Below, piece after piece: positions 21,083-21,673 of a stretch of DNA of 29,317 nucleotides. How positions within the stretch are numbered: position 1 is the stretch's first letter; the number at the start of each line of letters is the position of its first letter. The notes beneath the pieces are model-generated. The model was given only the letters and a program-made list of their open reading frames with translations, was not told where the DNA came from and searched no databases. Position numbers and translations under genes: made by a program. The DNA is from a virus (Duplodnaviria; Heunggongvirae; Uroviricota; Caudoviricetes): positions 1 through 29,317 of the IMG/VR virus record IMGVR_UViG_2872164251_000007. One strand, 5' to 3'.

Positions 21083-21106
21083 ACAAAAAACCCGCCGAAG
21101 CGGGTT
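21083..21106 (-). terminator. Rho-independent terminator downstream of hok
   Basis: Minus strand AAACCCGC-TTCG-GCGGGTTT followed by TTTTTTGT. Confidence 0.5.
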
Positions 21107-21174
21107 TAGTGCGGGTGCGTTGAGGATGCCTGACACATGAGAGGTGGCGAGGGATTTCTCCCCCGCCTGGTCTC

Positions 21175-21330
21175 TTACTCCTCAGGTTCGTAAGCTGTGA
21201 AGACAGCGACCTCCGTCTGGCCGGTTCGGATTCGTACCTCGCAGAGGTCTTTCCTCGTTACCAGTGCCGTCACTATGACGGTTAAACAGATGACGATCAG
21301 GGCGATTAACATCGCCTTTTGCTGCTTCAT
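21175..21330 (-). CDS. hok: Hok-family type I toxin (HokD/RelF-like), 51 aa
   Basis: MKQQKAMLIALIVICLTVIVTALVTRKDLCEVRIRTGQTEVAVFTAYEPEE; the track ORF extends 19 codons upstream in frame (mok-like). Confidence 0.8.
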   Translation of the reverse strand: MKQQKAMLIALIVICLTVIVTALVTRKDLCEVRIRTGQTEVAVFTAYEPEE

Positions 21331-21673
21331 AGCCTGCTTCTCCTTGCCTTTCGGCACGTAAGAGGCTAACCTACATTTGTGAGACATAGATTGGGCCTCA
21401 GATTAATGTTAAGCGTCTTGCAGGACGCGTAATGTTAACTGGGGCTTTTCTCTGTCTGCCTTACAGTGGCATGCCCGAGGCAGACAGCCTCAAGCACCCG
21501 CAGCAATCTTACCGATACCGATAAGAAAACGCTATTTTTTATTGCCAGCACCTTCTATCCAGGCTAATTTATCTGCGTCAGAACGGCGCAATGCGCTCGC
21601 CTGAGATACGTTTACTTGCCATGGTAACAACAGGTAACGGCAATTGCTGTTTCTGTTTTGTTTCCTTCAAAAA

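Follow-up and report, generated by a model that had tools for sequence, protein, structure and literature searches.

The 29,317-nucleotide (nt) stretch of Caudoviricetes DNA analysed here (IMG/VR record IMGVR_UViG_2872164251_000007, positions 1 to 29,317; hereafter the window) very probably carries, on its minus strand, a complete and intact hok/sok module, a toxin-antitoxin system of type I, with the canonical mechanism, belonging to the hokD/hokW subgroup that is frequent in the lambdoid prophages of Escherichia coli and Shigella. The locus is an ordinary copy of this family and has no novel feature. Enrichment of hok in prophages has been documented (bioRxiv 10.1101/2025.08.07.668861), and because nothing in the locus departs from that picture we count it as already known.

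The toxin gene (21175..21330, minus strand) codes for a 51-residue Hok protein, as an initial annotation made by inspection of the window had proposed. The assignment is based on the open reading frame (ORF), a match to the Pfam family HOK_GEF (PF01848; E=3e-23, with 81.6 bits where the cutoff is 22), a match to PHROG 251 ('MokW-like host killing'; E=2.8e-33), and complete identity (51/51) to HokD of E. coli K-12, a protein reported to be toxic (bioRxiv 10.1101/2025.08.07.668861). Toxins of the Hok/Gef family are ~50 residues long, with one transmembrane helix and a conserved Cys. The same protein, residue for residue, is encoded in all of the 80 best IMG/VR matches. The NCBIfam Hok subfamily models were not used for membership, their scores being below the curated cutoffs (48.5 vs 73). 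We note that the Tyr46 codon of hok (21189-21192, minus strand) sits within the motif GCUUACGAA (UACG); at this site in K-12 hokC, hokD and hokE, A-to-I editing by TadA is reported to recode the residue to Cys46 (PMC12214031), and the same recoding would apply to the copy in the window.

The hok ATG is preceded by a whole leader of 169 nt. A covariance-model search for hok/sok RNA elements, which the initial annotation had suggested as a check, matches Rfam RF01794 to positions 21499..21325 (minus strand) over the whole model (1-157), with 118.1 bits, a gathering threshold of 59 and E=1.3e-26. The start of this match and an intrinsic terminator delimit a predicted hok (mok-hok) mRNA of ~417 nt (21083..21499, minus strand). 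Transcription would thus start at about 21499, judging from the start of the Rfam model and from family homology, and a candidate -10 hexamer, TAAGAT (21506..21511, minus strand), lies 6 nt 5' of the putative +1 G at 21499. A -10-like hexamer is found at the equivalent position in relatives: most prophage copies have TAGAAT there, hokC and R1-type loci TATAAT, and a P1-like plasmid TACAAT. The features first described are real, well beyond chance; the interval first proposed for the locus, 21083-21470, is slightly short on its 5' side, because the predicted mRNA 5' end lies at about 21499 and the -10 at 21511-21506; 29 nt of leader and the promoter had been left out.

Rfam describes RF01794 as 'sok antitoxin (CssrC)'. 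In K-12 and 933W, however, its matches lie on the hokC/mokC and hokW strands, respectively, opposite to the annotated sokC and sokW. The model is thus hok-sense at both loci and vouches for the leader rather than for Sok, and we rejected it as direct proof of the antitoxin. Strand calls taken from RF01794 would mislabel Sok.

A mok-like ORF of 70 residues (21175..21387, minus strand) starts in the leader at ATG 21387, is in frame with hok and shares its stop, and so encodes an N-terminally extended Hok, in agreement with the upstream extension originally described. Its Shine-Dalgarno (SD) sequence, GAGG (21396..21399, minus strand), lies 8 nt 5' of the ATG and is invariant in the alignment of relatives; the mok SD of plasmid R1 is also GAGG (PMC9841398). 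The geometry of mok relative to hok equals that of the annotated mokW (933W) and mokC (K-12). The two frames coincide in the window locus, hokW, hokC and an Atlantibacter plasmid, and are out of register in Rac 442/2, the P1-like plasmid and a Klebsiella R1-type locus, through a 1-nt insertion or deletion in AAAGG(T)CAAGG. Because the mok frame varies across the family, it is only translation through the region that is conserved, and not the Mok peptide. The SD of hok itself, AAGGAG (21340..21345, minus strand), lies 9 nt 5' of its ATG and pairs with CCUCUU in the minimum free energy (MFE) structure of the full-length mRNA. The terminator noted after hok in the initial annotation is also present: a terminator scan places it at 21083..21107 (minus strand), with an 8-bp stem (21107-21088) containing five G-C pairs and followed by a T-run. 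It is kept by most relatives and is not found in 933W, whose sequence diverges past the fold-back inhibitory element (fbi) discussed below.

A sok gene is present opposite this leader at the level of sequence, and its transcript is predicted. To place Sok we used an alignment with phage 933W (92.8% identity), in which sokW is annotated as a 71-nt misc_RNA (AF125520); the corresponding 71 nt lie at 21379..21449 on the plus strand. The initial annotation had expected an antisense RNA on this strand, overlapping the leader near 21330-21420, and was correct as to strand and overlap, although its interval was shifted by 30-50 nt. Sok and sokW are identical at 64 of 71 positions, with five of the seven differences inside the first 14 nt. 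The predicted fold has a 14-nt single-stranded 5' tail, a long hairpin and a terminal UUUU (-29.2 kcal/mol, z=-5.3). The unit matches the region of the mok SD and start with perfect complementarity, and overlaps the start of mok by 9 nt, equal to the annotated overlap of sokC and mokC in K-12.

The putative sok promoter, TTGCCT-17-TAACCT, is located inside mok (21344..21372, plus strand; -35 at 21344-21349, -10 at 21367-21372), and the Sok start, G 21379, is six nt past the -10. This stretch is base-for-base equal to the sokW promoter of 933W/Sp5, for which functional data are available. In the 'pro-less' construct (primers YO-421/422; Takada et al. 2021, PMC8621323), TAGGTTAG, the complement of the sokW -10, was replaced by CCGGCTCG; antitoxin activity was lost and HokW toxicity unmasked, and sokW supplied in trans rescued (PMC8621323). 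Some 78 of 81 prophage copies have AGGTTA or AGATTA, the complement of the sok -10, at this place, and R1-type plasmid loci have TTGCCT-17-TATCCT at the equivalent position.

The predicted folds of the mRNA reproduce the three alternative pairings of the R1 model, namely tac-fbi, ucb-SD/tac-ucb, and the 5' metastable hairpin. In R1, pairing of tac with fbi gives a closed, untranslatable full-length mRNA; in the 3'-processed mRNA tac pairs with ucb, which leaves the mok SD free and allows Sok to bind; and in the nascent chain tac pairs with a nearby segment to form the metastable hairpin (PMC9841398). The full-length mRNA of the window locus (417 nt) has an MFE of -178.1 kcal/mol (z=-6.9 vs shuffles), and in this structure tac, GGGUGCUUGAGG, at the mRNA 5' end (21488..21499, minus strand), pairs with fbi, CCUCAACGCACCC (21113..21125, minus strand), as a 12-bp helix between 21499-21488 and 21125-21113. 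The ucb or anti-SD box, AAGCCCCAG (21439..21447, minus strand), can pair with either the mok SD or tac; in the full-length MFE, GCCCCAG within it pairs with the CUGAGGC that holds the mok SD, which is thereby sequestered. When fbi is removed by 3' truncation, the MFE instead pairs the 5' end with AAGCCCC and the SD-sequestering hairpin is shortened, so that a tac-ucb stem formed after loss of fbi is predicted to free the mok SD. The third partner of tac, GCCUCGGGCAU (21471..21481, minus strand), appears in nascent-length folds: the first 30-45 nt form a hairpin (3-13/19-29, -18.8 kcal/mol) that is also present in the centroid of the truncated mRNA.

Two further stem-loops complete the predicted structure. 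One is the mok-AUG hairpin (21368..21392, minus strand; full-length MFE), which has the loop CUCACAA, is complementary to the 5' tail of Sok and, by analogy with the R1 model, is presumed to be the Sok target. The other is a stem-loop in the 3' untranslated region (UTR), GGCGGGGGAGAAAUCCCUCGCC (21146..21167, minus strand), seen in both full-length and truncated folds. By analogy with R1, where mutations in the final stem-loop of the Tr-hok mRNA cause loss of function (PMC9841398), it probably protects the 3' end of the processed mRNA.

We projected the full-length structure onto 68 distinct relatives, comprising 63 IMG/VR prophage copies and 933W, Rac, hokC-type and P1-like plasmid loci. It is 93.7% paired across these sequences, compared with 35-42% when the partners are slid by 1-3 columns, a control in which the structure is favored by its derivation from the window sequence itself. 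Twenty pairs are changed on both sides, compared with 6.1±1.5 in shuffles. All 12 pairs of the tac-fbi helix are standard in 100% of the sequences; the ucb/mok-SD hairpin is 99.2% paired and has two-sided changes in four of its pairs; the helix containing the hok SD is 95.6% paired; and the 3'-UTR stem-loop helix is 99.3% paired, with G-U, A-U and G-C exchanges. The mok-AUG hairpin helix, only 76% paired, is the most variable part of the transcript. In the R1-type loci the 5' and 3' ends still pair with both sides altered (GGCGCUUGAGGC with GCCUGAAGCGCC or GCCGCAAGCGCC). The initial annotation had held that leader fold elements disrupted relative to functional hok loci would speak against its assignment; the elements are intact, since the predicted pairings are conserved and the ends pair even in these distant loci. 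The tac sequence is unchanged in 78 of 81 prophage copies, and we note that three IMG/VR prophage loci (L047, L051 and L092) encode an identical Hok without the tac 5' element, their leaders probably having been replaced or truncated as in K-12 hokD.

The closest functionally tested relative is hokW-sokW of 933W and Sp5/VT2-Sakai (AF125520, PMC8621323), with 92.8% nt identity across 400 nt. Common to both loci are the 169-nt leader, the in-frame 70-residue mok, the 51-residue Hok and a likewise placed 71-nt Sok, and their sok promoters, SDhok regions, tac and fbi are identical. hokW-sokW differs at five of the first 14 Sok nt, which form the recognition tail and mok codons 2-5, and at four C-terminal Hok residues (TAYEPEE in the window, VDYESEK in hokW). 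The 5' hairpin has a compensating difference between the two, G-C vs A-U, and 933W is without the terminator hairpin that follows fbi in the window. The genome positions also differ, with the window copy in a nin-like region and the 933W copy near the right end.

The K-12 hokD gene (relF, Qin prophage) is 98.5% identical at the nt level from 14 nt 5' of the ATG through fbi and the terminator, and both copies are prophage-borne, with a Q-type antiterminator region downstream. In K-12, however, relBE replaces everything upstream of window position 21344, so that tac, ucb, the mok start, Sok and the sok -10 are missing. Because homology to K-12 extends only from 21344 downstream, the window copy represents the complete form of the truncated K-12 gene. 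The hokD-annotated locus of E. coli AVS0790 has 98.4-99.0% nt identity to that of the window. Membership of the hokD/hokW subgroup was judged by nt identity to such prophage loci of at least ~90% over leader, coding sequence and 3' UTR, together with a place in a lambdoid prophage, and the window locus belongs to it on both counts.

More distant members of the family share the same plan. The R1 hok/sok (parB) system has the same order of elements: tac, metastable hairpin, ucb, SDmok GAGG, mok with the sok promoter (TTGC..-17-TA.CCT) inside it, SDhok, hok, 3' hairpin, fbi and terminator. This architecture was read from two R1-type loci (L007 and L012), and RF01794 matches the R1 type as it does the window locus. 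The R1 leader is largely different outside a conserved core of ~47 nt at the sok promoter and SDhok, and R1 Sok is 64 nt long, compared with 71 nt in the window. R1 hok/sok is plasmid-borne with proven post-segregational killing, whereas the window locus is in a prophage; the Hok proteins resemble each other only distantly, HokW and R1 Hok being 44% identical (PMC8621323). The hokC/mokC/sokC (gef) locus has ~75% nt identity over 92% of the locus, with mok in frame. An intact hokC-type copy (L008) keeps the tac-fbi pairing, and hokC differs in a shorter ucb-SDmok hairpin, with an 18-nt deletion in the alignment. The K-12 hokC locus is cut by IS186 20 nt past the stop codon, and fbi is therefore removed.

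If the locus behaves as R1 and Sp5 hokW-sokW do, a weak minus-strand promoter would yield the ~417-nt mRNA, which tac-fbi pairing would close while ucb covers the mok SD. The full-length mRNA would be stable and inert, and slow 3' exonucleolytic trimming would activate it. Abundant, short-lived Sok would then pair with the activated mRNA and block translation of mok, and hok, if its translation is coupled to that of mok, would be blocked along with it; RNase III would cut the Sok-hok duplex. When Sok synthesis stops or Sok decays, Mok and Hok would be made and Hok would depolarise the inner membrane. RNA stability, 3' processing, RNase III cleavage and killing have been shown in R1 (PMC9841398 and references therein) and partly for hokW-sokW (PMC8621323). 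The role of the module in a remnant riddled with insertion sequences (IS) is uncertain, and could be stabilisation of the DNA segment (addiction), help with lysis after SOS induction, as shown for hokW-sokW (PMC8621323), or none at present. A hokW-style role in induction may not apply, because the host prophage is degraded and IS-interrupted.

Several observations weigh against a complete and working module. There is no convincing -35 for the hok promoter by inspection, both transcript ends are placed by homology, and the hok mRNA, its processing and Sok are deduced here from sequence and predicted folds. The sok promoter agrees with the sigma-70 consensus at 7 of 12 positions (-35 4/6), with only 3/6 in the -10, and a consensus promoter and terminator scan of 20900-21750 found none of the hok promoter, the sok promoter and the Sok terminator. 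The prophage is degraded, with IS66, IS91, IS1 and at least four IS3-family transposase ORFs in the window. Finally, structurally intact chromosomal loci (hokA of E. coli C, hokB, and hokC of ECOR24) are reported not to bring about post-segregational killing. The scan result is readily explained. Both the scan and the initial annotation, in which no convincing sok promoter could be defined by eye, missed it because its hexamers match the sigma-70 consensus poorly (4/6 and 3/6), and we do not accept the scan as proof of an absent promoter since the sokW promoter, its homologue, works with these very hexamers. The promoter is indeed weak, but homology to sokW locates it at 21344-21372, and we caution that the sok promoter is too weak for consensus scanners.

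The missing scan hit, together with the K-12 copy that encodes an identical protein without Sok, is what would favor an orphan toxin lacking a functional antitoxin, with mRNA structure alone silencing Hok. We regard this as very improbable indeed. The K-12 copy has just 14 nt of the shared upstream sequence, while the window locus has the full 169-nt leader; the plus-strand promoter is that of sokW, whose mutation abolishes antitoxin activity; the sok hexamers keep their positions among prophage, hokC and R1-type loci; and the Sok unit is predicted to fold into tail, hairpin and U-run. A weightier alternative is that the locus is intact in sequence and physiologically silent, a hitch-hiker, as has been suggested for hok loci of chromosomes, and of no use to the cell or to the defunct prophage. 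Such a locus might be retained through recent acquisition or because loss of sok first would be lethal, an explanation that we likewise consider unlikely. The fragmentation of the prophage by IS1, IS3-family, IS66 and IS91 elements is consistent with a silent locus, as is the situation in K-12, where most of the five copies are considered inactivated (PMC12214031). The inactive K-12 copies, however, have an IS or a rearrangement within the locus (IS186 at hokC, truncation of hokD), and that of the window is intact, with all regulatory elements predicted to pair as in functional systems. The closest tested relative, hokW-sokW (~93% nt identity), works and has a measurable phenotype. We therefore think silence unlikely overall, while it is a real possibility because intact chromosomal loci have given no killing and the prophage is defective.

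A main role in anti-phage defence by abortive infection, in which an infecting phage shuts off host transcription, Sok is depleted and Hok kills, seems quite improbable. Prophages often bear defence cargo in this type of region, and R1 hok/sok reportedly reduces the growth of T4. Against this, no defence gene was identified among the neighbours of the locus by Pfam and PHROG annotation, a 2026 survey reports that hok is not enriched near defence systems, and the data for hokW-sokW indicate a role during induction (PMC8621323). A complete hok/sok module of the hokD/hokW subgroup thus accounts best for the locus.

Most of the 68 relatives encode an identical Hok, and across them the transcript varies most at 21379-21393, corresponding to the Sok 5' tail and mok codons 2-5, a pattern in keeping with diversification of Sok-target specificity. 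Mean entropy of the Sok tail is 0.84-0.93, compared with 0.21 in the remaining leader and 0.04 in the coding sequence, and it ranks 1-3 of 374 windows along the transcript; there are at least 15 tail variants, while the SD, AUG and sok promoter on either side do not vary. It is possible, if rather doubtful, that the 14-nt 5' tail (21379-21392) is a specificity cassette under diversifying selection, of which the window locus carries one allele. If so, co-resident prophage hok/sok copies would avoid neutralisation by each other's Sok or, equivalently, each prophage would stay individually 'addictive'. The IMG/VR sample includes just two same-genome pairs of Sok tails; the tails agree in one pair and differ in the other. 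The Stx1 and Stx2 phages of the same O157 strain have identical match statistics to the query (H39/H44), so that their loci may be the same or closely similar; this would speak against strict orthogonality.

The locus is set in a lambdoid prophage of Rac/Qin type, in its nin-like region, and its placement inside a prophage by the initial annotation is confirmed by the neighbouring lambdoid genes. On one flank of hok are genes for an IstB/DnaC-like ATPase, DUF977 and DUF551, and on the other DUF1367, YbcO and a DUF1133 Q-like antiterminator; the gene order equals that of E. coli AVS0790. Over window positions 18176-26046, identity to both Shigella flexneri SFBU1023 and E. coli ECMA0423 is 99.3%, and the hok region is identical in both at 511 of 511 nt. 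Compared with AVS0790, the window has an additional IS1 (~19918-20685, with InsB at 20166-20669), inserted with a ~9-10 bp target duplication; its borders were derived from this comparison with an IS-free relative, an IS1 inverted-repeat sequence having given no match. It lies between hok and DUF1367, at the 3' end of an 83-residue ORF (20687-20938), and disruption of the locus, as by IS186 and IS150 in K-12, was rejected since the element, the nearest IS, is 398 nt past the hok terminator. The ORF at 20687-20938 was considered as Rem, which follows hokD in K-12, and rejected, with 3 of 83 residues identical; it belongs to PHROG 1813, of unknown function. The IS load is typical of Shigella-like genome decay.

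By megablast the locus is present in 4,722 of 5,426 complete E. coli genomes, and a more sensitive search gives matches in all 5,426, at a median of four places per genome; a further 79 matches are phage records. In RefSeq, loci of this kind usually bear just the annotation 'hokD'. Beyond correct annotation the import of the present analysis is small; it supplies exact positions of mok, Sok and the regulatory RNA elements, which had lacked annotation. It also shows that this prophage remnant, from a genome of Shigella/E. coli type, bears in full the module that the textbook K-12 hokD (relF) retains in truncated form. One phage record, PP818812.1 ('Actinobacillus phage vB_Apl-pPE4'), has a hok locus 97.2% identical to that of the window. 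One would not expect an enterobacterial lambdoid module in Actinobacillus, and the label could reflect mis-assignment or contamination.

Directly 5' of the hok promoter is a 27-residue hydrophobic ORF, MTWPEAFTTVGIAMAVALVVYSICRWG (21705-21788, minus strand), with a GGAGG SD, after which comes a bidirectional terminator-like hairpin (21668-21700). Searches of Pfam, NCBIfam and PHROG gave no match to it. The ORF is kept at the amino-acid level in 31 of the loci retrieved, including diverged forms such as MNWPEAFAITGVAMAIAFLVYVICRWG, and probably encodes an unannotated small membrane protein.

Other features of the window include a C4 antisense RNA (77.6 bits) that adjoins isrK (63.5 bits) at 18178-18365 (minus strand), both identified with Rfam. 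The pair is directly downstream of the DUF1133 Q-like gene (18398-19072), and the left limit of the S. flexneri/E. coli segment homology (18176) coincides with its site. An ALIL frameshift pseudoknot (120 bits; 10385-10501, plus strand) is found within an IS3-family element, and a cluster of four tRNA genes (14708-15015, minus strand) adjoins a phage-integrase-family ORF at 12960-14570.

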